Under the pieces are notes generated by a model. It searched no databases. It saw only the letters and a list, made by a program, of their open reading frames with translations, and was not told where the DNA came from. A DNA stretch of 64,000 nucleotides from Alphaproteobacteria bacterium (GTDB lineage Bacteria; Pseudomonadota; Alphaproteobacteria; Bin95): contig OZ224045.1 of assembly GCA_963665325.3 (NCBI GenBank), forward strand, positions 960,001-1,024,000, written 5' to 3'. Of the stretch, positions 1 through 20,112 are shown piece after piece; the stretch's first letter is position 1, and each line of letters starts with the position of its first letter. The translations under genes were made by a program, and so were the position numbers.

Positions 1-315
1 CGCACAGGCGAGATAGAGGCAGTCGTAAACCGGATGGTCGATCCGGAGGGCGATGGCGGTGGCGTGGATAACAAGCTCCGCGGCCGGGGCCAACGAGACG
101 AGATCGCCCAGGCGGGCGAGTTCGTGAAGGTAGGGTTGTGCGTCTGCTACTTCCCGGCGCCGGGCCTTCTTCCAGATCACGTTGGCGGCCTCGGTCAGTA
201 TGAAATCCGGAGCGTGCAGCACAATCCGGTGGGCCAGAAGCTGCCGCGCCTCGACAGTTCCGTCTTCGGTGAACAACCATTTGACCGCAACGCTGGCGTC
301 GACGACCGCCTTCAC
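1..315 (-). CDS. vapC: PIN-domain (VapC/FitB-like) toxin, 3' end runs off the window
   Basis: Manual translation from GTG at 315: MKAVVDASVAVKWLFTED...TEAANVIWKK...HPVYDCLYLACA, with PIN acidic residues. GTGA overlap with the antitoxin stop. Not in the ORF track because it is truncated. Confidence 0.9.
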   Translation of the reverse strand, partial: MKAVVDASVAVKWLFTEDGTVEARQLLAHRIVLHAPDFILTEAANVIWKKARRREVADAQPYLHELARLGDLVSLAPAAELVIHATAIALRIDHPVYDCLYLACA

Positions 316-548
316 CGATCGCGGTCCTCACGCAGGAGGAGGACGCTGTCTGTCTGGGGGCGCTCGGCGGTGAGCGCCGCGAGGCGTGCGGTGCGTTCGC
401 GGAAGTCTTCGAGGCGGGCGTGGCGCAGCACCTGCTGGGCGAGAAGATGGCGTATCTCCCCTTCCAGCGAGCGCTGGTTCGTTTTCGCCTGGGCCTTCAG
501 AGCGGCAACCAGCTTGTCATCGACATTACGCACGGTGATGGTGGCCAT
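312..548 (-). CDS. FitA-like ribbon-helix-helix antitoxin
   Basis: MATITVRNVDDKLVAALKAQAKTNQRSLEGEIRHLL...LLREDRDR is a typical FitA/Arc RHH antitoxin, directly upstream of the PIN gene. Confidence 0.88.
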   Translation of the reverse strand: MATITVRNVDDKLVAALKAQAKTNQRSLEGEIRHLLAQQVLRHARLEDFRERTARLAALTAERPQTDSVLLLREDRDR

Positions 549-565
549 GAAATGCGTTCCCGCCC

Positions 566-588
566 GATAGCAGCGCTTTGCTAGCATA
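566..588 (-). promoter_or_regulatory. Putative TA operator/-10 region
   Basis: GATAGCA-N6-TGCTAGCA. The minus strand reads TATGCT, as upstream of the second FitA-type module. Confidence 0.4.
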
Positions 589-704: not shown

Positions 705-1610
705 TCAGGTGCAGCCGGCCGCCCGCCGGAGAGCGGAGAAGTCCGTCTGGGCTTCCAGCCCGATGCAGATGAGGCCGGCGGAGGCGTTGGGGGGTGCTTC
801 GGAGACGGACCAGCGGTTGCCGACGGTCTGGATTGCGGCCATGCCGCCGCCGGGGCGGCGCATGAAGCCCTTTGCGCGGAGCAGGCCGTGAGCGGGGTCG
901 GCGAGGATGCGGGCGAGCGCTTCCGGCTCGGCTCCGTCGGGCGGGTCGAACGCGGCCGTCGCATAGCCGTGCGTGTGGTCGAACGGCCCGCCGCCTGCCG
1001 GCAGGGCGGCGCGGCCGGTCCAGGCGCCCAGCACGATGTCGATGGGCGCGTCGGACTGCACCGTGCGCACAACCCGCGCTTCCGGGGCCGCTTCGCCCAG
1101 CCAGGCTTCCGCAGTGTCCGCATCGCCGGCGAGGTCGCATTTGTTCAGCAGGATGAGGTCGGCCTCGGCCAACTGCCGCCGGACGGTGCTGCCGAGATAG
1201 CGGTCCCCGGCCCGGCCGCGCACGGTCTCGGCATCGGCCAGCACGACCGCCCCGTCGAGCGCGAAGCCCTGGAGCAGGCCGACCGTGCCGGCGATGGCGC
1301 CCGGAAAGGCGACGCCGCTCGCCTCCAGCAGCACATGGTCGGGCCTCGGCTCCAGCGCCCGGAGCATGACGAGCGAGGACACCAGGTCCTCGCCATAGCT
1401 GCAGCACACGCAGCCGCCGACAAGGCTGACGATGCGGTCGTCCGCCGCCTCGACCAGGCTTGCGTCGATGGGCAGCGCGCCGAATTCGTTGACCATGACG
1501 GCGAGCCGCCTGCCGTTCGCCTGCCGGAGCATGCTGTTGACCAGGGTCGTCTTGCCGGCGCCCAGATAGCCGCCGACCACGGTGACGGGCAGCGGGCCGG
1601 CGGCGATCAT
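705..1610 (-). CDS. CobW/COG0523 family G3E GTPase (metallochaperone)
   Basis: GYLGAGKTT Walker A, VNEFG, GCVCC metal motif, EASG, LLNKCDL, C-terminal LRAKG. Confidence 0.92.
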   Translation of the reverse strand: MIAAGPLPVTVVGGYLGAGKTTLVNSMLRQANGRRLAVMVNEFGALPIDASLVEAADDRIVSLVGGCVCCSYGEDLVSSLVMLRALEPRPDHVLLEASGVAFPGAIAGTVGLLQGFALDGAVVLADAETVRGRAGDRYLGSTVRRQLAEADLILLNKCDLAGDADTAEAWLGEAAPEARVVRTVQSDAPIDIVLGAWTGRAALPAGGGPFDHTHGYATAAFDPPDGAEPEALARILADPAHGLLRAKGFMRRPGGGMAAIQTVGNRWSVSEAPPNASAGLICIGLEAQTDFSALRRAAGCT

Positions 1611-1696
1611 GACGGGCGCCGTCCCCGGCAGGAGCGAACCGGGGACATGAGGTTGCCGATACCACCGCCTCGGCCTCCGCCTGTCCCCACTCTTTT

Positions 1697-1836
1697 CATC
1701 ACCCCGGCCTCGAGCCGGGGTCCATCCATGGCTCGCAATATCGCCGCAGCCGGTGGAAAGAGGGCGGAACTACCGAGGCTGCAGCGAAAGCCAGGGCTGG
1801 ACCCCGGATCTCCGCTTCGCTCCGTCCGGGGTGACG
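1697..1836. repeat. REP-like palindromic element (alphaproteobacterial type)
   Basis: CATCACCCCGGCCTCGAGCCGGGGTCCA (1697-1724) and TGGACCCCGGATCTCCGCTTCGCTCCGTCCGGGGTGACG (1798-1836): two hairpins whose outer arms are inverted relative to each other. Confidence 0.7.
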
Positions 1837-1902
1837 GATGGGGACCGGGGCCGGGCCGGCGGTTGTGCCTCGTATGGCGGCGCAACGCGGCGGTTGTCAC
1901 AG

Positions 1903-3543
1903 CTAGAGATCGGTCGCGGGGAAGATGCGGCCGCCCTGCACGGTGCCCCAGACGCGCACATCCTTCAGCCGTTCGCCTCCGACGGTCTCCGGGTCGTCCT
2001 GCAGCACGGCGAAATCGGCGCGCTTGCCGGTCTCGATGGAACCCACCTCGCCGTCGAGGCCGAGCGTGTAGGCAGCGCCCAGGGTGATCGTGCGGAGCGC
2101 GTCGGCGACGCCGATCCGCTCCTGCCCGCCAAGGGTGCGGCCCGACGCGGTTTGCCGGTTGACGGCGCACCAGGCGGTGAAGAGCGGGCCGAGCGGCGTG
2201 ACCGGCGCATCGGAGTGGATCGCGAGCGGCACGCCCTCGCGCAGCGCGGTCGCGCAGGCGTTCATCCGCTCGGCGCGCTCCGGACCCACCGTCACAGCGT
2301 AATGCTGGTCGCCCCAGTAATAGTGGTGGTTCGGGAACAGGTTGACGCACATGCCGAGCGCCCGGATGCGCCGGAACTGCGCCGCGTCGGCAAGCTGGCA
2401 GTGCTGGAGGGTGAAGCGGTGGTCCGGCGCTGGGTGCTTGCGGAGCGCGGATTCCATACAGTCCAGCGCCAGGTCCGTCGCCTCGTCGCCATTGGTGTGG
2501 GTGTGGACCCGAAGGCCGGCGGCGAGCGCGCGCTCGTAGATCTCCAGCAGGTGCTCCGGCGGGATGTACCAGAGGCCCTCCGGCGCGCCGTTATAGTAGC
2601 CGGGCCAGCGCAGCCGGGCCGAGAAGCCCTGGATCGAGCCGTCTGCCACCACCTTGATAGTGCCGAGGCGGAGCCTGTCGCGGCTGCGGCCCCTGAGTTC
2701 CAGCGCCCGGTCGATCAGCTCTTCCGGCGTGAGGCCGTAGAAGCGGCGCAGAGAGACGATGCGCGCCGGGTAGTCCGCCTCGCCTGTCACCCGCAGCATC
2801 ATCTCCACCGCGTCTTCCGGCAGCAGGTTGGCGAGGTCGGCGGCCGTGGTGACGCCGGTGCGCACGCAGAGCTTGGCGAAGCGCCTGAGGCCCGGCTCGT
2901 CGCAGGCCAGCAGGTCGCGGTCGAAGCCGGTGTGGACGCCGAGCGGGGCCATGGCGTCCGGCCCCTTCATCTCGCCGGTCGGCAGACCGTCCGCGCCGAG
3001 CGGGATGCCGGGATGGTTGACGCCCGTCCGCAGCATGCCGGCGAGTTCCAGCGCCTTGGTGTTGACATTGAGGATATGGCCGGAGGCGTTGAGCACGCCC
3101 ACCGCGCGCTCGGTAGAGACCTTGTCGAGGTCGTGCCGGTTCACCCGCCGGCCGCCATAGTAGATCGCATCCAGCGACCAGCCGGCGAGCGGCGCAGCCG
3201 GGTCTTCCAGCGCGTCCGCTGCCTCGCTGAGCCGTTCCACCACGGCGTCGATGGATTTCATGCCGGGCCATACCGTGCCTTCGGGGTCCATGCGGTCGAA
3301 GAAGCCGCAATAGACATAGGCCCAGAGCGAGCCCTCCATGACATGGCTGTGGCCTTCGACCAGGCCCGGCATCAGCACCTTGTCCGCGAAGCGCTCGTCG
3401 AGGCGGTAGTCGCCCCAGCCTGCCAGTTCCTCCAGCGTGCCGGCGCCGAGGATGCGCCCCTCCCGCACCGCCACATGGGTGGCGTGCGGCCGGGCCGGGT
3501 TCATGGTGACGATCTTGCGAGCAGGATAGATGGTGGCGGTCAC
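1903..3543 (-). CDS. YtcJ-like metal-dependent amidohydrolase (amidohydrolase_3)
   Basis: PGLVEGHSH, KVVADGS, HTNGD, QHCQ, HSDAPV and GSIETGKRADF motifs. Confidence 0.9.
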   Translation of the reverse strand: MTATIYPARKIVTMNPARPHATHVAVREGRILGAGTLEELAGWGDYRLDERFADKVLMPGLVEGHSHVMEGSLWAYVYCGFFDRMDPEGTVWPGMKSIDAVVERLSEAADALEDPAAPLAGWSLDAIYYGGRRVNRHDLDKVSTERAVGVLNASGHILNVNTKALELAGMLRTGVNHPGIPLGADGLPTGEMKGPDAMAPLGVHTGFDRDLLACDEPGLRRFAKLCVRTGVTTAADLANLLPEDAVEMMLRVTGEADYPARIVSLRRFYGLTPEELIDRALELRGRSRDRLRLGTIKVVADGSIQGFSARLRWPGYYNGAPEGLWYIPPEHLLEIYERALAAGLRVHTHTNGDEATDLALDCMESALRKHPAPDHRFTLQHCQLADAAQFRRIRALGMCVNLFPNHHYYWGDQHYAVTVGPERAERMNACATALREGVPLAIHSDAPVTPLGPLFTAWCAVNRQTASGRTLGGQERIGVADALRTITLGAAYTLGLDGEVGSIETGKRADFAVLQDDPETVGGERLKDVRVWGTVQGGRIFPATDL

Positions 3544-3580
3544 ACCGCAGGCTCCCTTCGGGCGGGGATTGCCGGGCCGG

Positions 3581-4105
3581 TCAGGCGGCCGCGGTCAGGA
3601 TCGGCAGGGCCTGCTCATAGGCGGCGGCGGCCAGCACCTCGATCTCGTCCGGCCGGCGGCTGCCGATCGGGTGTTCGACCATCACGAAGGGATAGTCGGG
3701 AAGGCCCAGCGTCCGGGCGATGTTCCGCGCCGTCACCTCGAAGGGTTCGGTGCAGATGACGATCGCGCGTTTCCCGAGCTGCTCGAAGCTGATGCCGTCA
3801 TGCAAACTGCACGTCGAACAGGAGCCTCAGTCGCCCAGTCCCGTTATGAGGAAATCGACCTTCTGCGCCGCGGCCTTCAGCGTCTCTTCCGGCGCGGGCG
3901 CGCTGGCGTTGGACTTCGAATAGACCGGCACCACCGTGCAGCCATGCCGGGCCTCGAAGACGGCGGCGGTCTCGCGCAGCATGGAGACGGCGTTGAGCTT
4001 GCCGTTCTCCAGCAGGCCGATGGTCCGGCCCTCCAGCCCGGCGAGCGCCGCTGCCCGACTGTTGTTCCGTTCCGGCCCCGGAACCGTGGGGTCGCAAAGA
4101 AGCAT
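3581..4105 (-). CDS. UGSC-family selenoprotein (174 aa, Sec at in-frame TGA 3827-3829)
   Basis: Track ORFs 3827..4105 and 3581..3805 are in the same frame. Readthrough gives ...ITGLGD-U-GSCSTCSLHDGISFEQLGKRAIVICTEPF..., the UGSC motif. RBS-like GGGAG lies upstream of the ATG at 4105. Confidence 0.88.
3799..3813 (-). promoter_or_regulatory. Putative bacterial SECIS hairpin
   Basis: mRNA CGUGCA-GUU-UGCAUG starts 13 nt after the UGA, with G first in the apical loop. It resembles the upper stem of the E. coli fdhF SECIS. Confidence 0.6.
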
Positions 4106-4138
4106 GCCTATCGTCTCCCGTCCGTTGTCAGTTTCAGT

Positions 4139-4171
4139 CTACTCGCAATCGATGCACACGCCGATGGGCTT
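4139..4171 (+). repeat. 33-bp direct repeat copy 1 (orphan 3' end of gene 4990..6069)
   Basis: CTACTCGCAATCGATGCACACGCCGATGGGCTT, identical to 4990..5022. Encodes KPIGVCIDCE-stop on the minus strand. Confidence 0.97.
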
Positions 4172-4189
4172 TCACGGTCTGCCCGATAG

Positions 4190-4621
4190 TCAGCCGCTGC
4201 CGCTCGCATAGTCGGCGAGCGTCATGACCGCCCCGCCGTGAGCGGTCGGTGCAACTGCATTCGCGAAGCGGCGGTCGGCCGTCACGACAGTCGCGCCGAT
4301 ACGATGGGCCAGCGCAAGATACATGAAGTCGTAAACCGGCCTGTCGAGCGCCAGCGCAATCCGGATTGCATCTGCACCGACCGTTTCGTCGGCGTGCCAC
4401 TGCACCGGCATCCGGGGAACCGAAGCCATCATTGCGCCTGCTTCGTCATGCTCGATCTGGCCCCGGCGCGCTTTGCTCCAGAGCGCATTGGCCAGTTCGG
4501 CCGCCATCAGGCGCGGCGCATGCAGGTCATGCCGGCCTGTCGCCAATTCACGCGCGGCTTCGAAATCTTCCTCGGCTACCAGCCATTTGACCGCTACGCT
4601 GGCGTCAACGACCAGCCGCAT
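4190..4621 (-). CDS. vapC: PIN-domain (VapC/FitB-like) toxin
   Basis: MRLVVDASVAVKW...AELANALW...VYDFMYLALA...VVTADRRF. TGATG coupling with the antitoxin. Confidence 0.93.
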   Translation of the reverse strand: MRLVVDASVAVKWLVAEEDFEAARELATGRHDLHAPRLMAAELANALWSKARRGQIEHDEAGAMMASVPRMPVQWHADETVGADAIRIALALDRPVYDFMYLALAHRIGATVVTADRRFANAVAPTAHGGAVMTLADYASGSG

Positions 4622-4890
4622 CAGAAGCCGAGATGGGGGCGATGGCCGCGGTCGCGGTCTTCGCGGATCAACTCCTCGGCAGGCGTATGTTCGCGCCCTT
4701 CCGTCAGGCTCCGCAGCCGGTCGGCGATGGCCAGGAAGTCGGCGCGTTTGGCCTCCATGTCGTCGTCCTCGACCGCACATTCCAGGATATGGCGCACCTC
4801 GCCCTCCAGGGACCGGTTGTTGCCCGAAGCGCGATGCTTGAGACGCCGGACCACATCGTCATCGAGCTGCCGCACGTTTATCGTCGCCAT
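4621..4890 (-). CDS. FitA-like RHH antitoxin
   Basis: MATINVRQLDDDVVRRLKHRASGNNRSLEGEVRHIL...LIREDRD, a paralogue of 312..548. Confidence 0.9.
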   Translation of the reverse strand: MATINVRQLDDDVVRRLKHRASGNNRSLEGEVRHILECAVEDDDMEAKRADFLAIADRLRSLTEGREHTPAEELIREDRDRGHRPHLGF

Positions 4891-4909
4891 CTTTCGATCC
4901 TCGACCGAT

Positions 4910-4928
4910 TGCTATCGAATTGATAGCA
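4910..4928. promoter_or_regulatory. FitA-type operator inverted repeat
   Basis: TGCTATC-GAATT-GATAGCA, about 20 bp upstream of the antitoxin. Half-sites match the Neisseria fitAB operator (TGCTATCA/TGATAGCA). Confidence 0.65.
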
Positions 4929-4989
4929 TAACCGGGCGGAAAGAGACAGTCTCCATCGTCCGGTCGGGCAGCCGGCTCGCGCTCCCCGC

Positions 4990-5022
4990 CTACTCGCAAT
5001 CGATGCACACGCCGATGGGCTT
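4990..5022 (+). repeat. 33-bp direct repeat copy 2 (current 3' end of the gene)
   Basis: Identical to 4139..4171. Confidence 0.97.
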
Positions 5023-6069
5023 CGATTGCATGAGGGAGGCGCGGCCGCGGCTCCAGGAGGGGATGAAGCTGGAATGGCCGCCGGCGTCGCCGCCGCCCAT
5101 GAGGATCATGATGTCGTCCGGGCCGAGGCCGCGGTGGAACTTCCCGTCACCCGCCAGCGGGCGCACGCCCTCCTCCGCATGCTGCTTGCCGTATTCGACA
5201 TCGCGGTGCTTGCCGACAGACTTCATGCCCTCGACGCTGCGCCACGCATGGGCGAACAGGTATTCCTGCGCCTGTCTCCGCGTCCATCCGGCGCCGGAGA
5301 GGATGCGCATATGCTCCGGGGCCATCACCACCACGGACTGGCCGAGCGTGATGCAGCCATAGTTCGCCATCGCGTCGGCGAAGGTGCCCAATATGTGCTC
5401 CGGCGTGTTGCCGCCATGGTTCTCGATGTTGCAGAAGCCGCCGCCGGCGAAGACGGTGACGCTGCTCACGCCTTCCGGATAGCCCTGTTCCTCGCAGAGC
5501 AGCGGCCAGGGATTGCCCCGGCTGCGCTCCGCAATGCAGAAGCCGAATTTGGCCGGCTGGCCCTGGGTCGATTTGTCGGAGATGCCGGGGATCATCCGGA
5601 AGACGTTCATCAGGATGAGGCGCACGGCGCGGCCGATAGTGGCGTTGGCGCGGTTGCCGGGGCCGAACAGGTTCACGTCTGAGTTCATCTGAATGTCGTC
5701 GGTGACGGGGCCGCTGACGACCAGCAACGGCGCCGAGCCGCCGGTGGACGCGGTCGAGCCGTGGAAGTTGAAGCCGGGCTCGTTCATGGCCTCGAAGGCC
5801 GCGACCAGCACCGGGAAATATTCGGGCCGGCAGCCGGCCATGACGGCGTTCACCGCCGCGGCGTGGACGGTGCATTCGAGGCCCGTCGCGGGATGGCGGG
5901 CGATGGGGGTCTCGGGCGGCCGGCCCTCATAGCCGAGCATCTCTTCCACCCGCCCGGGCGCCGGCGGCACGACCGGCAGGCCGTCGGTCCAGCCCTGCTC
6001 GAAGCAATAGTCGATGGCGGCGAGCGGGTCGTCGGCGACCTCGTGCAGGCGTTCGGCATCGTAGGGCAT
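4990..6069 (-). CDS. Uncharacterised UGSC-associated protein (GWTDGLPVVPP family) with C-terminal CxxC
   Basis: GWTDGLPVVPP, AVNAVMAGC, GNRANATIGRA and GQPAK motifs, recalled as a family often fused to or next to UGSC proteins. Ends in CIDCE. Confidence 0.8.
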   Translation of the reverse strand: MPYDAERLHEVADDPLAAIDYCFEQGWTDGLPVVPPAPGRVEEMLGYEGRPPETPIARHPATGLECTVHAAAVNAVMAGCRPEYFPVLVAAFEAMNEPGFNFHGSTASTGGSAPLLVVSGPVTDDIQMNSDVNLFGPGNRANATIGRAVRLILMNVFRMIPGISDKSTQGQPAKFGFCIAERSRGNPWPLLCEEQGYPEGVSSVTVFAGGGFCNIENHGGNTPEHILGTFADAMANYGCITLGQSVVVMAPEHMRILSGAGWTRRQAQEYLFAHAWRSVEGMKSVGKHRDVEYGKQHAEEGVRPLAGDGKFHRGLGPDDIMILMGGGDAGGHSSFIPSWSRGRASLMQSKPIGVCIDCE

Positions 6070-6168
6070 GGGCGCGGGCTCCGTTCGCCTCCGGTTGCCT
6101 CCCTATAGCGCATGGTGAATTATCCCGGCAACAAGACCGCCGGACGCGCAAGAGGGGGAATCGGGCCC

Positions 6169-7260
6169 GTGGCGAAAATCGACAAGCTGGAAATCGACCT
6201 GTTCCGCCTGCCGCTGCCGGTGGCGATGGAAGCCTCGGCCGCGGGCGTGATGACCGCCTTCGACATGGTAACGGCGCGGATTACCGACAGCGACGGCGTC
6301 TCGGGTGTGGGCTACACCGTGATGCATGAGGGGCAGGGCGGCCCGATCGCGGCGATGTGCGACGGCTCCTTCCGCTCCAGCATCGAGGGGTGGGATCCGG
6401 ACCTGATCGAGGCGATCTGGCGCGATATCTACAAGCGCCACCACTATGCCGGCCGGGGCGGGGCCACCGGCTTCGCGATGGCGGCGGTGGATGTCGCGCT
6501 CTGGGACCTGAAGGGCAACAGACTCGGCTCCCCGCTCTGGCGGCTGCTCGGCGGGGCCAACCCCTCCGTGCGGGCCTATGCCGGCAATATCGACCTCAAC
6601 TTCCCGGTGGACAGGCTGCTGGAAGGCGGCATGGTGAGCGTCGAGGCGGGTTTCCGGTCGGTCAAGATGCGGCTCGGCCGCCCGACCATCGCCGAGGACA
6701 TCGCGCGCGTCGAGGCGATGCGCAGCCATCTGCCCGACGAGATCGAGCTGATGGCGGATGCGAACGAGGCCTGGCGGGTGGAGCAGGCGATGCGCGCCAT
6801 GACCCTGCTGCAACCCTTCGACCTGGTCTGGCTGGAGGAGCCGATCGCGCCCGACAACACGGCCGGATATGCGCATCTGCGCTCACTCGGCAAGGTGCCG
6901 CTGGCGGCGGGCGAGAACCACCACACGCTGGCCGAGTTCGCGGCGCTGATCGGCGCCGGCGGGGTCGATTTCCCGGAGCCCGACCTCACCACATGCGGCG
7001 GCGTCACGCCGTTCATGAAGGTGGCCCGCCTGGCCGAGGCGCACGGCCTGCCGGTGATGAGCCACGGCGCGCACGACCTGCATATCCACTTGCTCGCCGC
7101 CGCGCCGAACGCGGCCTACCTGGAATGGCACGCCTTCGGCCTCGACAAGTTCATGGCGGACCCGCTGACGGTCGAGCACGGCTACGCCCGCGCCCCCGAC
7201 CGCCCCGGCCACGGTATCGCGTTCGACTGGGAGGCGCTTGCGTCGCACCGGCCGGGTTAG
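6169..7260 (+). CDS. Mandelate racemase/muconate lactonizing enzyme family (enolase superfamily)
   Basis: AAVDVALWDLKG, KxR, DANE, WLEEP, GEN and catalytic H. GTG start chosen after the AGAGGGGG RBS. Confidence 0.88.
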   Translation: MAKIDKLEIDLFRLPLPVAMEASAAGVMTAFDMVTARITDSDGVSGVGYTVMHEGQGGPIAAMCDGSFRSSIEGWDPDLIEAIWRDIYKRHHYAGRGGATGFAMAAVDVALWDLKGNRLGSPLWRLLGGANPSVRAYAGNIDLNFPVDRLLEGGMVSVEAGFRSVKMRLGRPTIAEDIARVEAMRSHLPDEIELMADANEAWRVEQAMRAMTLLQPFDLVWLEEPIAPDNTAGYAHLRSLGKVPLAAGENHHTLAEFAALIGAGGVDFPEPDLTTCGGVTPFMKVARLAEAHGLPVMSHGAHDLHIHLLAAAPNAAYLEWHAFGLDKFMADPLTVEHGYARAPDRPGHGIAFDWEALASHRPG

Positions 7261-7279
7261 GGGGTGCGGCTTCCGCCCC

Positions 7280-8194
7280 TCAAAGCCCCCACCGCAGCGC
7301 CAGCAGGTCCAGCGGCCGCGCCAGTTCCAGCAGGCCGGCCAGCACTTCCGGCTCCAAGGGCGTGAGCGGGGCGCGGACGTGGTCGGAGCGGATGACGCCG
7401 CCGGCTTTCATCGCGGCCTTCGAGGCGCGGAGGCCGCACTGGCGGTTTTCGTAGTTGATGAGCGGCAGCACGCGGGCATAGGCGGCGGCGGCTTCCTCGC
7501 GGCGGCCTTCGCGGTGGGCGTCCACGACGGGCTTCAGAAGGTCCGGCAGGAGGGCGCTCGGCATGGTGCCGGTGGCGCCGGCGTCGAGGTCTGCCATCAG
7601 CGTGATCGCCTCCTCGCCGTCGAACGGCCCCTGTATCGCCTCGCCGCCCGCCCGGATCAGCGAGCGCAGTTTCCCGGCGGCCTGCGGCGTCTCGATCTTG
7701 AAATATGCGACACCGGCGATCTCGCGCGCGAGCCGGGCGAGGAACGTGACGCTGAGTTCCACGCCGGAGAGCGGCGCGTCCTGCACCATGATCGGCAGGC
7801 CCCCCTCCGCTGCCCGCGCGAATTGCTCGTATGTCTGCGCTTCGGTGCCCCTGAGCCCCGCGCCGTGATAGGGCGGCATCAGCATGACCATCGCGGCGCC
7901 CAGTTCCGCCGCCCGCCGGCAGCGCCCGACGACGATCCGGGTGGAGAAGTGCGAGGCGGCGACGATGACCGGCAGGCGGCCCGCAACATGCTCCAGGCAG
8001 ATCCGGGCGAGGGTCTCGCGCTCCTCGTCGGAAATCAGGAACTGCTCGGAATAATTGGCGAGGATGCAGAGCCCGTCCGAGCCCTGGGCCACCATGCAAT
8101 CGAGCACCCGCCTCTGGCCTTCCAGGTCGAGGTCTCCGGTTTCGGTGAAGACGGTGGGGACGACCGGCCACACGCCGCGCCAGGGTCTCGCCAT
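7280..8194 (-). CDS. DapA/DHDPS-family lyase (2-keto-3-deoxyarabonate dehydratase-like)
   Basis: GVWPVVPTVF, LANYSEQF, MPPYHG, VQDAP and FKIE (Schiff-base Lys). Confidence 0.85.
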   Translation of the reverse strand: MARPWRGVWPVVPTVFTETGDLDLEGQRRVLDCMVAQGSDGLCILANYSEQFLISDEERETLARICLEHVAGRLPVIVAASHFSTRIVVGRCRRAAELGAAMVMLMPPYHGAGLRGTEAQTYEQFARAAEGGLPIMVQDAPLSGVELSVTFLARLAREIAGVAYFKIETPQAAGKLRSLIRAGGEAIQGPFDGEEAITLMADLDAGATGTMPSALLPDLLKPVVDAHREGRREEAAAAYARVLPLINYENRQCGLRASKAAMKAGGVIRSDHVRAPLTPLEPEVLAGLLELARPLDLLALRWGL

Positions 8195-9120: not shown

Positions 9121-9984
9121 ATGCCGGACCGACCGCTCGTGCTCGTCACCGAGAAAGACCGCGCCGCCGTCCTGACGCTCAACCGGCCGGAGAAGAAGAA
9201 CGCGATGAACGACGCGCTGCTGGCGGCGTTCATCGCCGCGGTCCGCAGCGCCAATGCGGATGACGGGGTGCGCGCCATCGTCGTCAGGGGCGCAGGCGAC
9301 TGCTTTACCTCGGGGCGCGATGCTTCCGAGTTCGAGCAGGCGGCCGTTCTGCAGGACATGTCGGTGGATGCGGCGGTGGACATCTTCCTGGAGGCGCTCT
9401 CGCTGCTGATCGAATCGCCGAAACCGACGATCGCCGCCGTGCATGGCATGGCGCTCGGCGGCGGGCAGGCGATGTCGCTTGCCTGCGATTTCGTCGTGGC
9501 GGAGCGGGACGCGCGGTTCGGCAATGTGGAGATGGCCTACGGCTTCCCGGCAGCCATGAACATCGCGCTGTTGACCCGCCAGATCGGCCGGCGCCGGGGG
9601 CTGGAGATCGCCATGACGGGCGACCTCTACACCGCCGAGCAGTATCGGGAGTTCGGCCTGGTCAACCGGCTGGCGGAGCCCGGCGGGCTGGACGAGGCGG
9701 TGGCGGCCTTCGTCGGCACGCTGACCGACCTAGCGCCCTGGGCGGTCCGGCGCACCAAGACGACCTATCGCCTCGCCGAGGACATGGCGCTGCACGGCGC
9801 GCTCAACTTCGGCAACCAGCTGAACCAGCTCTTGCGCCTGAACGGCCAGCTCGCGCCGATCCACAGCCGCAGCGAGGGGGTGAAACGGGCGCTCAAGACG
9901 GATATCGCGGACAGGGAGGCGGCGGAGGGGGGTAAGCCGCCGCAGGAAAGAGGCCGCCCGGCGCCGGGCCCGTTCAGGCGATGA
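9121..9984 (+). CDS. Enoyl-CoA hydratase/isomerase family
   Basis: LNRPEKKNA, FTSGRD, KPTIAAVHGxALGGG, FGxxE. Confidence 0.9.
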   Translation: MPDRPLVLVTEKDRAAVLTLNRPEKKNAMNDALLAAFIAAVRSANADDGVRAIVVRGAGDCFTSGRDASEFEQAAVLQDMSVDAAVDIFLEALSLLIESPKPTIAAVHGMALGGGQAMSLACDFVVAERDARFGNVEMAYGFPAAMNIALLTRQIGRRRGLEIAMTGDLYTAEQYREFGLVNRLAEPGGLDEAVAAFVGTLTDLAPWAVRRTKTTYRLAEDMALHGALNFGNQLNQLLRLNGQLAPIHSRSEGVKRALKTDIADREAAEGGKPPQERGRPAPGPFRR

Positions 9985-10375
9985 CGGCTACACCTTCGGC
10001 GGAGGCCGCGCGGGCAAGGGCGCGGTCGAGCGTCGCAAGGCTGTCGCCCCGGCGCAGCGCCGTCTCCAGATAGGCAGCGTCGTAGGCGGACAGGCGGCGA
10101 TTGCACGCGAGCGCGAAGACCGTGTCCTCGTCATGAGAATCGTCCTGCGCCAGTTGCAGGTTCCGCAAACGTGTCAGGAACCGCGCGCTTTGGGTGCGGT
10201 CGATACGGCCGCGGCGTTCGTTCACAATCAGGATATTGCGGATTTCATGCCGGAAGAGTCCGGGAACGACGCCTCCGGTTTGCGGCAGGATATCCAGAAC
10301 GTGCTCGGCCGCCTGCGCCTGCTCATCGGGAAAGCACCACGCCGCCGCGATGGAGGCGTCGATAACGACAGCCAT
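9974..10375 (-). CDS. vapC: PIN-domain VapC toxin
   Basis: MAVVIDASIAAAWCFPDE...HEIRN...LSAYDAAYL...LATLDRAL. TGATG coupling. Confidence 0.92.
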   Translation of the reverse strand: MAVVIDASIAAAWCFPDEQAQAAEHVLDILPQTGGVVPGLFRHEIRNILIVNERRGRIDRTQSARFLTRLRNLQLAQDDSHDEDTVFALACNRRLSAYDAAYLETALRRGDSLATLDRALARAASAEGVAVIA

Positions 10376-10608
10376 CAGGCGCGGCCCTCGTCCCTGGCGG
10401 CGCGAATCTCCGCGGCAGAGACGGAGGGGCGTTCCTTTCGCTCCTGCCTCAAGAGTTCGACGGTGCGGGCGACCGGTTCCCGTATCGGCACGATGCGGGC
10501 GGCCGGCACGCCGTTGCGCGCGATGACGACATCCCGGCCTTCCTCGGCCTGGGCGATCAGATGCGACAACCGCGTCTTGGCATCGCCGATATTGAAGGTG
10601 GGAGGCAT
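10375..10608 (-). CDS. Phd/YefM family antitoxin
   Basis: FNIGDAKTRLSHLIAQAEEGRDVVIARNGVPAARIVP, the Phd N-terminal signature. Confidence 0.92.
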   Translation of the reverse strand: MPPTFNIGDAKTRLSHLIAQAEEGRDVVIARNGVPAARIVPIREPVARTVELLRQERKERPSVSAAEIRAARDEGRA

Positions 10609-10664
10609 GGACCCGGTTCCTGTCTGCGTGTCCGTATCCGCCCACAGATATCCACCGTTACAGA

Positions 10665-10685
10665 CTTGGTCAAGGCTTGGTCAAG
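10665..10685. promoter_or_regulatory. Tandem CTTGGTCAAG boxes, putative Phd operator/-35
   Basis: CTTGGTCAAG-G-CTTGGTCAAG; each box is an interrupted palindrome and reads TTGACC on the minus strand, about 55 bp upstream of the antitoxin. Confidence 0.5.
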
Positions 10686-10701
10686 CGGGTTGGCGGAGCC
10701 C

Positions 10702-10836
10702 ATGGCGGTGCATGGCGCGCTCAACTTGGGCAACCGTCTGAACCGGCTTCTGCGTCCGAACGGCCCGCATGCGCCCATCCACAGCCGCAGCGACGGGGTC
10801 AGGCAGGCACTCAGGACGGATATGGAGGAAGGGGAA
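10702..10836 (+). pseudogene. Degenerate duplicate of the 3' end of the enoyl-CoA hydratase gene (9784..9918)
   Basis: Ungapped manual alignment, 109/135 nt identical. MAVHGALNLGNRLNRLLRPNGPHAPIHSRSDGVRQALRTD vs MALHGALNFGNQLNQLLRLNGQLAPIHSRSEGVKRALKTD. Confidence 0.9.
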
Positions 10837-10857
10837 CCCGGCCAGCCGGATCGGAGA

Positions 10858-10885
10858 GCCGCCGCCCCGGGGTCGGGGCGGCGGC
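10858..10885. terminator. GC-rich hairpin, possible terminator
   Basis: Perfect 12-bp stem GCCGCCGCCCCG-GGGT-CGGGGCGGCGGC between convergent units. No clear U-tract. Confidence 0.5.
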
Positions 10886-17949: not shown

Positions 17950-20112
17950 ATGATGCCCGCGCCGGCGCCGGTCCGCACCGATATCCTGCTGGTCGGCGGC
18001 GGACACGCCCATGTCGAGGTGCTGCGCCGCTTCGGCATGGCCCCGGTCCCCGGTGTGAGGCTGACCCTGGCGACACGCGACCTCGCCACGCCCTATTCCG
18101 GGATGCTGCCGGGCTTGGTGGCCGGCCACTACAGCCATGACGAGGCGCATGTCGATCTGGCGCCGCTGGCTGTATTCGCCGGCGCCAGGCTCATTCACGG
18201 GGCTGTGACGGGCCTCGACCTCGACCGGAACGAGGCGCTGATCGACGGCCGGCCTCCGCTGGCCTTCGACATCGTGTCGCTGGACATCGGTTCGACGCCT
18301 TCCGCAGCGGGCATCCGGGGTGCGGAGCACGCCCTGCCGGTCAAGCCCGTGGACCGGTTCCTCGAACGCTGGGCGGAGTTGGAAGAACGGGCGGCCGGGG
18401 CCGGGGGCGCTTTCCGCCTTGTCACCGTGGGCGCAGGCGCAGGCGGCGTCGAGCTCACGATGGCGCTGCAACGCAGGCTGGCTGAGCACGGCATGGCAGC
18501 GGACAGGCTGCAATTCACCGTCGTCTCGGATATGGACGAGGTCCTGCCTGCGTACGGCTATGCGGCGCGCCGGCAGGTAGCGGCCGCGCTTCGCCGTTCC
18601 GGGATCGGGCAGCGGACGGGTGTGCGGGTGGCGGCGGTCGAGCCGGATGGCGCGGTCATGGAAACGGGCGAGACGCTGGCGGCCGACGCGGTCGTCCTGG
18701 CCACGCCCGCGGCGCCGGCCGGCTGGGTCGCGGCATCGGGGCTTGCGGCGGACGAAAGGGGCTTCGTCGAGGTCGGCGCAGACTTGCGCTCCCGCAGCCA
18801 CGAGCAGGTGTTCGCTGCGGGCGACATCGCTGCGTTCGGCGCGCGCGCCCTGCCGAAGTCCGGGGTGTTCGCAGTCCGCCAGGGTCCGGTCCTCGCCGAG
18901 AACCTGCGCCGGCTGGCGGCTGGTGGCGGGCCCTTGCTCCACTACCGGCCGCAGAAACGGACGCTGGCCCTGGTTTCGACCGGGCGCGGCCAGGCCGTTG
19001 CGTCCTGGGGGCCGTTCGCTGCCGCAGGCGGCTGGGCGTGGCGCTGGAAGGACCGTATCGACCGGCGCTGGATGGACCGCTACCGCGACCTACCGGCAAT
19101 GGGCGAGGCGGAAGAGATGCGCTGCGGCGGCTGCGGCGCGAAGCTCGCGGCGGTTCTGCTGGAGCGCGTTCTGGCAAGACTGGAAGTGAAGGCGCACGCG
19201 GATGTTGTCGTAGGTCTGGGCGACGATGCGGCGGTGATCCGCCCGCCGCCCGGCCGGGTGGCCGTACGCACCGCGGACCAGTTCCGCGCGTTCATCGACG
19301 ACCCCTACCTCTTCGGGCGAATTGCTGCGAACCACGCACTCGGCGACCTCTATGCAATGGGCGCCGAGCCCCAGACTGCGCTCGCGCTGGCGACCTTGCC
19401 GCTCGCGCCCGAGGAGAAACTGGAGCGGGACCTCGAAAGCCTGATGCGCGGTGCGTTGGAGGTGTTGAATGCGGCCGGCTGCGCACTGGTCGGCGGCCAT
19501 ACTGCGGAGGGAGCGGAGCTATCGCTCGGGTTCGCGCTGGACGGCCACGGGCAGGCGGAACTGCTGACCGGGAAGGGCGGACTGCAAGAAGGCGACCGGC
19601 TCGTGCTCGTCAAGCCGCTCGGAACCGGCGCGATCCTGGCTGCGCATATGGCCGGACTCTGCCGCGGCGATTGGTTGGAAGCGGCGCTCGCCGCGATGCA
19701 GCAGTCGAATTGCGAGGCAGGCGAGGTGTTGCGCGCACATGGCGCCGTCGCCGTCACCGACGTGACCGGATTCGGCCTTGCCGGCCATCTGGCGGAGATG
19801 CTGCGCGCCTCCGACCGGGCGGCGGTCCTGGCGCCCGGGGATGTGCCGGTCCTGCCGGGCGCCCGCGAGCTGATCGCCCGTGGCGTGCGCAGCACGCTCC
19901 ATCCGGCCAATGAGGCAGCGGCCGAGGCGTTCGATCCCGAAGCCTGCCCGGTGCTCTTCGACCCGCAAACGGCCGGCGGGCTGCTCGCGGGCGTGCCGGG
20001 CGACCGGACGGACGCCTGCCTCGCCGCGCTGGCCGCCGCCGGCTATGCGCAGGCGGCGGTCGTCGGCGAGGTGACTTCCGGCCCGCCTGGCGAGCTCACG
20101 CTCGGGAGTTAG
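17950..20112 (+). CDS. selD: Selenide,water dikinase SelD fused to an N-terminal FAD-dependent pyridine nucleotide-disulfide oxidoreductase domain
   Basis: N-term GGGHAH, YSGMLPG, GAGAGGVE, FAAGD. C-term MRCGGCGAK, GDDAAV, FGRIAANHALGDLYAMG, GGHT, DVTGFGLAGH, DPQTAGGLL. Confidence 0.92.
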   Translation: MMPAPAPVRTDILLVGGGHAHVEVLRRFGMAPVPGVRLTLATRDLATPYSGMLPGLVAGHYSHDEAHVDLAPLAVFAGARLIHGAVTGLDLDRNEALIDGRPPLAFDIVSLDIGSTPSAAGIRGAEHALPVKPVDRFLERWAELEERAAGAGGAFRLVTVGAGAGGVELTMALQRRLAEHGMAADRLQFTVVSDMDEVLPAYGYAARRQVAAALRRSGIGQRTGVRVAAVEPDGAVMETGETLAADAVVLATPAAPAGWVAASGLAADERGFVEVGADLRSRSHEQVFAAGDIAAFGARALPKSGVFAVRQGPVLAENLRRLAAGGGPLLHYRPQKRTLALVSTGRGQAVASWGPFAAAGGWAWRWKDRIDRRWMDRYRDLPAMGEAEEMRCGGCGAKLAAVLLERVLARLEVKAHADVVVGLGDDAAVIRPPPGRVAVRTADQFRAFIDDPYLFGRIAANHALGDLYAMGAEPQTALALATLPLAPEEKLERDLESLMRGALEVLNAAGCALVGGHTAEGAELSLGFALDGHGQAELLTGKGGLQEGDRLVLVKPLGTGAILAAHMAGLCRGDWLEAALAAMQQSNCEAGEVLRAHGAVAVTDVTGFGLAGHLAEMLRASDRAAVLAPGDVPVLPGARELIARGVRSTLHPANEAAAEAFDPEACPVLFDPQTAGGLLAGVPGDRTDACLAALAAAGYAQAAVVGEVTSGPPGELTLGS

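Follow-up and report, generated by a model that had tools for sequence, protein, structure and literature searches.

Do the four co-oriented genes at positions 705..6069 of a 64,000-nt alphaproteobacterial DNA stretch (contig OZ224045.1 positions 960,001-1,024,000; hereafter the window) form one selenium-dependent catabolic operon, as an earlier note on this DNA had suggested, or a combination of separate units? The genes encode a partner protein, a UGSC-family selenoprotein, an amidohydrolase and a COG0523/CobW-type GTPase. Comparison of the cluster with genome loci containing partner homologs (L001-L049) and with plasmid loci (later L numbers) revealed that the conserved unit is, as far as sequence comparison tells, the partner plus UGSC, and that the amidohydrolase and the GTPase appear to be a module of their own, which this lineage acquired on a single occasion. 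We propose, giving it about an even chance, that the pair is a two-subunit, thioredoxin-fed selenol/thiol reductase that would act on a small organic acid by cleaving an S-S bond or a bond between carbon and a heteroatom.

The partner and the UGSC selenoprotein form the conserved unit

Pairing of the two proteins was obligate in nearly every setting. UGSC adjoins the partner in 47 of the 49 genome loci, the exceptions being L033, which is cut off, and L013, which has no UGSC. Plasmid records with a partner numbered 24, of which 18 were examined; UGSC was adjacent to or fused with the partner in 17 of these 18 loci, and all 16 significant UGSC plasmid matches adjoined a partner match. Fusions were frequent, with a UGSC domain in 65 of 120 long partner homologs and a UGSC piece, in both orders, in 36 of 150 representatives (37 listed, P0180 being excluded as a spurious match), four of which stop just before the selenocysteine (Sec) position.

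Complex prediction, for which a stand-in fusion without the CxxC tail was cut into its two domains, gave a score of 0.58 compared to 0.00 for the best control, with 94% concordant contacts and a predicted local distance difference test (pLDDT) value of at least 89 for the partner, and returned no interface. The score mark is reached by 116 of 157 solved pairs and 2 of 215 mismatched pairs; scores of 0.60 or less were found for only 18 of the solved pairs, yet for both of the mismatched ones. The predicted complex thus lends weak support to the pair. Together with adjacency, fusions in both orders and the thioredoxin reductase (TrxR) fusions described below, this sustains the earlier suggestion that partner and selenoprotein are one functional redox unit.

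Several loci show variations on this arrangement. In four haloarchaeal loci (L057, L061, L065, L067), a single UGSC gene lies between two partner paralogs, and two tandem partner domains occur in several proteins (P0005, P0006, P0009, P0020 and P0041), suggesting that the partner may act as a dimer or pseudodimer. UGSC-partner fusions lie beside aconitase X and DUF126 genes in Vibrio and Sporomusa (L055:5013-9020, L056:3884-9038), and partner genes with no adjacent UGSC gene occur at L013:7001-8086, inside the window's clade, and at L063:5974-6981.

The in-frame TGA is a credible selenocysteine codon

The UGSC protein carries the motif GDUGSCSTC (U93-G-S-C96-S-T-C99) and passes both NF041046 (129.9 compared to a cut-off of 125 bits) and PF24696 (164.6 compared to 25 bits). 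The hairpin that follows its TGA fits the bacterial selenocysteine insertion sequence (SECIS) model of a 3-9 nt loop with a G, 16-37 nt after the UGA, as described in the available part of PMC13188914. That the TGA is instead a stop codon or marks a split gene, with no selenoprotein made, would agree with single-sequence folding, in which the hairpin was no better than shuffles (z −0.4 to +0.7), and with a tRNA-Sec not being found within the 64-kb window, beyond which selA and selB were not searched for. We consider this extremely improbable given that the TGA is kept in 47 of 47 loci holding the gene and that distant homologs have a Cys codon in its place (12 of the 14 plasmid homologs that could be read, the other two having TGA). 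It is also opposed by near-zero synonymous variation in codons +5 to +7 after the TGA (43 sequences) and by a SECIS stem that 13 of 14 sequence variants preserve and that has changed on both sides in L048, L053 and L062. The window itself encodes a SelD fusion with a pyridine nucleotide-disulfide oxidoreductase at 17950-20112 (+), which has a CGGCGAK motif and scores above the TIGR00476 and TIGR03169 cut-offs, and selB adjoins one TGA-type locus. We conclude that the TGA is a credible selenocysteine codon and the selenoprotein real as far as sequence can show. The description selenium-dependent applies to this subfamily, but Cys prevails among the plasmid homologs. The third Cys of UxxCxxC lies inside the SECIS stem and is replaced by Trp or Gly in distant TGA-bearing homologs, suggesting that its conservation may be partly RNA-driven.

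UGSC homologs weakly resemble the selenocysteine region of GrdB and PrdB

The predicted structure of UGSC (pLDDT 95.5) consists of five strands alternating with helices, with the motif placed after strand 3. Its listed fold matches are flavodoxin-, receiver- and Rossmann-like (best Z 10.4, root mean square deviation (rmsd) 3.2, 133 aligned), with no thioredoxin-fold and no GrdB or PrdB chain among them. Fold searches with UGSC and with the partner show a new fold in neither.

Comparison of the 87 members of the UGSC alignment with NCBIfam revealed a distant similarity to the selenoprotein subunits of glycine and proline reductases. The PrdB model was matched by 17 members (best E 1.2e-4) and the GrdB model by 11 (best 3.6e-6), and the GrdF and GrdH models were also matched over the Sec region, while unrelated families recurred in at most two members. 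The matches span positions 333-403 of the GrdB profile and 129-188 of the PrdB profile; over PrdB 140-180, they place the motif near PrdB 149-151 if the alignment is ungapped, and the available part of PMC11229817 names U151 in Clostridioides difficile PrdB. Because the five Grd/Prd models are related to one another, we count these matches as one line of evidence. The long fusions are the members that most often match the PrdB model.

This similarity falls short of family membership, the best homolog scoring 21.5 bits on TIGR01918, for which the cut-off is 65.45, and 26.1 bits on TIGR01917. The GrdE/PrdA family was found in none of the 121 members of the partner alignment, among the best 25 of 31 NCBIfam and 25 of 26 Pfam families, and a plasmid search for GrdB sequences returned none. 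UGSC is thus not a GrdB/PrdB member, but may work like one.

Association with thioredoxin reductase

TrxR motifs are present in 35 of the 120 long homologs, and five long fusions, in both orders, were confirmed on TIGR01292 (201-388 bits). A TrxR-like gene also lies near the pair in six of the 18 plasmid loci, for example in the order trxB-trxA-partner-UGSC in Arthrobacter and partner-UGSC-trxB in Roseovarius. The remaining neighbours of the pair include transporters, LysR regulators, CoA transferases and several sulfur-related genes, and are variable outside the window's clade. The recurrence of CoA transferases and of tripartite ATP-independent periplasmic (TRAP) and tripartite tricarboxylate (TTT) transporters points to carboxylates as substrates. 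Neighbours resembling phosphosulfolactate synthase, rhodanese, DsrE/TusA, TauD/TauE and dimethylsulfoniopropionate lyase are an anecdotal hint at sulfur. The phosphosulfolactate-synthase-like genes lie at L050:4698-5486 and L051:3889-4356, in one actinobacterium and one haloarchaeon.

A general protective thiol oxidoreductase, acting in peroxide, sulfoxide, or protein or low-molecular-weight disulfide repair rather than in catabolism, would also have a UxxC motif, fusions to TrxR and thioredoxin-like domains and variable neighbours, and the available parts of PMC2398784 and PMC13188914 group UGSC with thioredoxin-like redox proteins. However, such a role would need a 350-aa partner with a conserved core, the divergent clusters of the family number in the thousands, the pair sits in substrate-specific clusters with LysR regulators and TRAP/TTT transporters, and the best fold matches of UGSC are flavodoxin-like, with a resemblance to GrdB/PrdB, so that we regard a protective function as unlikely.

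The partner protein and its CxxC tail

The partner belongs to a family of 4,800 clusters at 50% identity, with the motifs GWTDGLP, NAVMAGC and RANATIGRA, and had no Pfam or NCBIfam match. Searches of PDB sequences with the partner, UGSC and a partner profile gave nothing usable; the Atlas returned for the partner unnamed clusters and one UGSC-bearing cluster at 0.89, and for a UGSC homolog no match once PF24696 was skipped. The AlphaFold2 model of the partner (pLDDT 94.6) had no clear fold match, with nothing above Z 5.3 among the matches listed. It is probably the substrate-binding subunit.

The best Foldseek match of the partner, fumarate hydratase chain 7xky_A of Methanocaldococcus jannaschii (E 2e-5; VIA Z 4.9, 186 aligned, rmsd 5.3), raises the alternative that the pair is an iron-sulfur or metal hydro-lyase, comparable to the two-subunit class I fumarate hydratase, in which partner C80 and C178 and the U or C of UGSC bind a cluster. 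These cysteines are conserved in 113 and 116 of 121 sequences, respectively, and aconitase X, enolase-family and aldolase genes occur as neighbours, but the template modelling (TM) score of the match is only 0.25-0.30, and the recurrent TrxR fusions and the GrdB/PrdB similarity would be left unexplained. We hold a hydro-lyase to be very unlikely.

The earlier note had also described a 359-aa partner ending in CIDC and serving as a possible relay through this CxxC. Length and motif are as described, with one further residue following (CIDCE). Of 48 complete loci, 39 have the tail; the nine without it are L039, L048, L049 and the six members of a nested clade in which UGSC is still of the same TGA type. 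Among 110 short-tailed representatives of the family, only four carry it. Other homologs have fused thioredoxin-like (CPTC), small CxxC or thioredoxin-reductase domains in place of the tail. The CxxC tail is therefore subfamily-specific and dispensable, and a relay through it could at most be a subfamily accessory.

A proposed reaction cycle

In the reductase that we favour, UGSC would be the catalytic subunit, with U93 as nucleophile and C96 as resolving residue on a flavodoxin-like domain related to the Sec part of GrdB/PrdB, and the partner would supply the substrate pocket in place of pyruvoyl GrdE/PrdA. The selenolate would attack an activated bond in a small organic acid, either S-S or carbon-heteroatom (C-S being the likeliest, with C-N or C-O as further possibilities), and C96 would resolve the adduct to a selenenylsulfide. 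Re-reduction would proceed from NADPH through TrxR to a CxxC carrier, a role that may be taken by thioredoxin or a fused CxxC domain and perhaps, in this subfamily, by the CIDC tail. According to the available part of PMC10298544, glycine and proline reductases presumably act by selenolate attack on the substrate carbon, after which a thiolate resolves the selenoether; PrdB works complexed with pyruvoyl PrdA, according to that of PMC11229817.

Several observations weigh against this proposal. The window's own UGSC protein had no match to any GrdB/PrdB model, and the matches of its homologs, at 10-26 bits, are far under the cut-offs and cover only 40-80 residues around UxxC. One locus in each set, L013 and L063, has a partner without UGSC. 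A scan of 144 proteins encoded by up to three genes on either side of close orthologs detected no TrxR gene. The neighbours do not name a substrate, no family among them being sufficiently conserved and the tilt toward sulfur genes being anecdotal, and the partner has no known activating group. Finally, translational coupling of the four genes, apparent in the window's clade, allows for a local functional link.

More tentatively, and with somewhat less confidence than in the reductase itself, we suggest that such pairs may be widespread pyruvoyl-independent, thioredoxin-driven reductases that join a GrdB/PrdB selenol module to a partner of unrecognised fold and cleave C-S or C-N bonds, the CxxC tail being a built-in shuttle here. 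If so, Stickland-type selenium chemistry would have been carried into aerobic marine bacteria, soil bacteria and haloarchaea.

The amidohydrolase and the CobW-type GTPase joined the pair once

The amidohydrolase (PF07969, E 1e-67; PDB 3icj, E 4e-20; no NCBIfam family above cut-off) carries HxH, DGS, HxxGD, (Q/E)HC and SDxP, which we take to be the metal-site motifs of Amidohydrolase_3/YtcJ-like enzymes. The GTPase (PF02492, E 2e-41; PF07683, CobW_C) has the COG0523 hallmarks GYLGAGKTT, CVCC, EASG and NKCD and scores below the equivalog cut-offs for CobW of cobalamin synthesis (125 compared to 332 bits), ZigA (102 compared to 600) and the CobW-related selenoprotein family (47 compared to 180). 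It probably serves the amidohydrolase.

Both genes lie beside the pair in nine of the 49 loci, L003 ending too early, and neither was found in the other 38 at E 1e-5, three of them being too short to test. The loci with both genes form, together with the window, one clade of 12 rows (Shimodaira-Hasegawa-like approximate likelihood ratio test, 99; quick tree), indicating that the two genes joined the pair in one event. Elsewhere, amidohydrolases 51-54% identical to that of the window directly precede a GTPase gene in Burkholderia, Caballeronia and Paracoccus, as does a 35% identical one in Mesorhizobium, and in all four records examined the two genes come with their own transporter or LysR gene and without UGSC.

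Within the clade, stop and start codons overlap between UGSC and amidohydrolase genes in L002, L004 and L006 and between amidohydrolase and CobW genes in L001, L002, L004 and L009, so that co-transcription of the four genes, which the earlier note had expected, is probable in this lineage. These overlaps and the gene order kept in nine relatives are what would be expected if all four genes formed one selenium-dependent catabolic pathway, in which the pair acted on what the amidohydrolase consumes or produces and CIDC was an obligatory relay. We judge this quite improbable, since the linkage on which the earlier proposal depended fails outside one clade and so reflects a single event (none of 38 other loci, three of which end too early to test, carries either gene), the amidohydrolase-GTPase module occurs free of UGSC with its own transporter or regulator, and the CxxC tail is missing as often as described above. 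That the pair and the module share a pathway of some kind is likewise doubtful, if a little less so.

Organization of the locus

The four minus-strand genes were recovered as open reading frames at the positions first assigned to them, with a mandelate-racemase-family gene diverging from them (Table 1), and re-measurement confirmed the spacers of 33 bp, once the insert between partner and UGSC is removed, and 37 bp, between UGSC and amidohydrolase. The insert is, as had been proposed, a toxin-antitoxin (TA) cassette, of the FitA-like/PIN type, flanked by two identical copies of the partner 3' end.

Table 1. Positions in the window of the cluster genes, their signals and inserted elements.
Feature	Position	Strand	Remarks
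COG0523/CobW-type GTPase metallochaperone	705-1610	-	301 aa; PF02492, PF07683
Palindromic inserted element between amidohydrolase and CobW	1611-1902	-	292 bp; long hairpin
Amidohydrolase (Amidohydrolase_3, YtcJ-like)	1903-3543	-	546 aa; PF07969
UGSC-family selenoprotein gene	3581-4105	-	174 aa, TGA read through
Bacterial SECIS hairpin	3799-3813	-	6-bp stem, GUU loop 19 nt past UGA
In-frame TGA, putative selenocysteine codon	3827-3829	-	TGA in 47/47 loci holding the gene
33-nt direct repeat, copy 2 (duplicated gene end past cassette)	4139-4171	-	100% identity to copy 1
PIN-domain (VapC-like) gene, inserted cassette	4190-4621	-	PF01850, E 2.5e-14
FitA-like ribbon-helix-helix antitoxin, inserted cassette	4621-4890	-	PF22513, E 2e-15
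33-nt direct repeat, copy 1 (last 33 nt of partner gene)	4990-5022	-	
Partner protein gene	4990-6069	-	359 aa, C-terminus VCIDCE; 'Unknown_1' family
Mandelate-racemase-family enzyme, divergent	6112-7260	+	closest to PDB 2ovl and 3,6-anhydro-L-galactonate cycloisomerase

The nearest relatives are alphaproteobacterial metagenome-assembled genomes (L001-L010; partner identity 86-94%). A cassette-free site with a 33-34 bp gap is found in L007-L010, the cassette, whole or partial, in L001-L006, and diverged copies of the 33-nt repeat in L001-L003, L005 and L006. Elements related to the palindrome occur in L006, where the CobW start is repeated around it, and L010, and the amidohydrolase and CobW genes overlap or lie no more than 5 nt apart in L001, L002, L004 and L007-L009. 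After a second TA-like cassette at about 9974-10608 (region 9121-10884) comes a diverged second copy of an enoyl-CoA hydratase 3' end, 143 nt long and 80% identical to the first, from which it lies 918 nt away. The three duplications, including the 33-nt repeat and the CobW start in L006, indicate that inserts in this lineage repeatedly duplicate gene ends. Directly downstream of CobW, at 1-587 (-), lies a further FitA-like antitoxin with a PIN-like gene, of which 45 nt are 84% identical to the operon's cassette.

A promoter and terminator scan of the cluster gave background-level results, uninformative on transcript limits, and an Rfam scan of the window found four tRNAs only. The presence of tRNA, EF-Tu, RNA polymerase and ribosomal protein operons at 21645-53335 shows that the locus is chromosomal.

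The mandelate-racemase-family gene converges on a probable L-2-keto-3-deoxyarabonate dehydratase gene (region 6112-8194), and the two could form a sugar-acid pathway. In a second clade (L034/L037), UGSC is immediately followed by a gene with 76-77% identity to the mandelate-racemase-family one. These two observations make the latter a slightly better candidate than the amidohydrolase for a real link to the pair.

Comparison with known systems

Comparison of the pair with published work showed that family and fusion were already known. A UGSC/'Unknown_1' fusion was depicted in 2008 in Fig. S1A of PMC2398784, the available part of which suggests a thioredoxin-like fold and gives no function. The AVNAVMAGCxPEY segment of the partner matches that figure, identifying the partner as the Unknown_1 domain and its link to UGSC as one noticed at that time, so that the earlier note's term undescribed holds for the function and not for the association. 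In the open literature, including the available parts of PMC2398784, PMC13188914, PMC9312934, PMC1976440 and PMC5029168, we found no UGSC function, GrdB link or TrxR link, and hence no precedent for the GrdB/PrdB similarity, the flavodoxin-like model or the fusion and adjacency of partner and TrxR; open literature listings yielded nothing on a COG0523 and amidohydrolase module. The UGSC family can thereby be linked to a partner, a source of electrons and a possible chemistry, and for the Cys-type operons of cultured Arthrobacter and Roseovarius, assays would not require the expression of a selenocysteine protein. The four-gene cluster is a local arrangement, of lesser weight than the pair.

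The UGSC and partner of the window share U-G-S-C and AVNAVMAGCxPEY with the UGSC/Unknown_1 fusion of PMC2398784, as far as its available part shows. In contrast to that fusion, the window genes are separate, with a TA cassette between them, a CxxC tail on the partner and a third Cys of UGSC in the SECIS stem, and the model obtained here is flavodoxin-like, whereas the published view favours a thioredoxin-like fold. The two-gene module of Burkholderia, Caballeronia, Paracoccus, Variovorax and Mesorhizobium has the same order of amidohydrolase followed by CobW-type GTPase, but is preceded by a transporter or LysR gene and lacks the UGSC pair. The alpha subunit of class I fumarate hydratase (PDB 7xky) is the best structural match of the partner, albeit a weak one, in which a TM-score of 0.25-0.30 and 11-13% identity are insufficient for homology.

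The closest parallel is with GrdB, GrdF, GrdH and PrdB (TIGR01917, TIGR01918, TIGR04483), with which the pair shares the combination of a UxxC selenoprotein with a larger partner subunit and a weak profile similarity at the Sec region. Thioredoxin is the reductant of glycine reductase, according to the available part of PMC10298544, and is the one proposed for the UGSC pair. Nevertheless, UGSC is far below the GrdB/PrdB family cut-offs and is without their N-terminal part, the partner is without similarity to the pyruvoyl proproteins GrdE and PrdA, and no GrdA, GrdC, GrdD or PrdH was seen near the pair. Unlike the Grd/Prd systems, the UGSC pair occurs in aerobes and haloarchaea, often with Cys.

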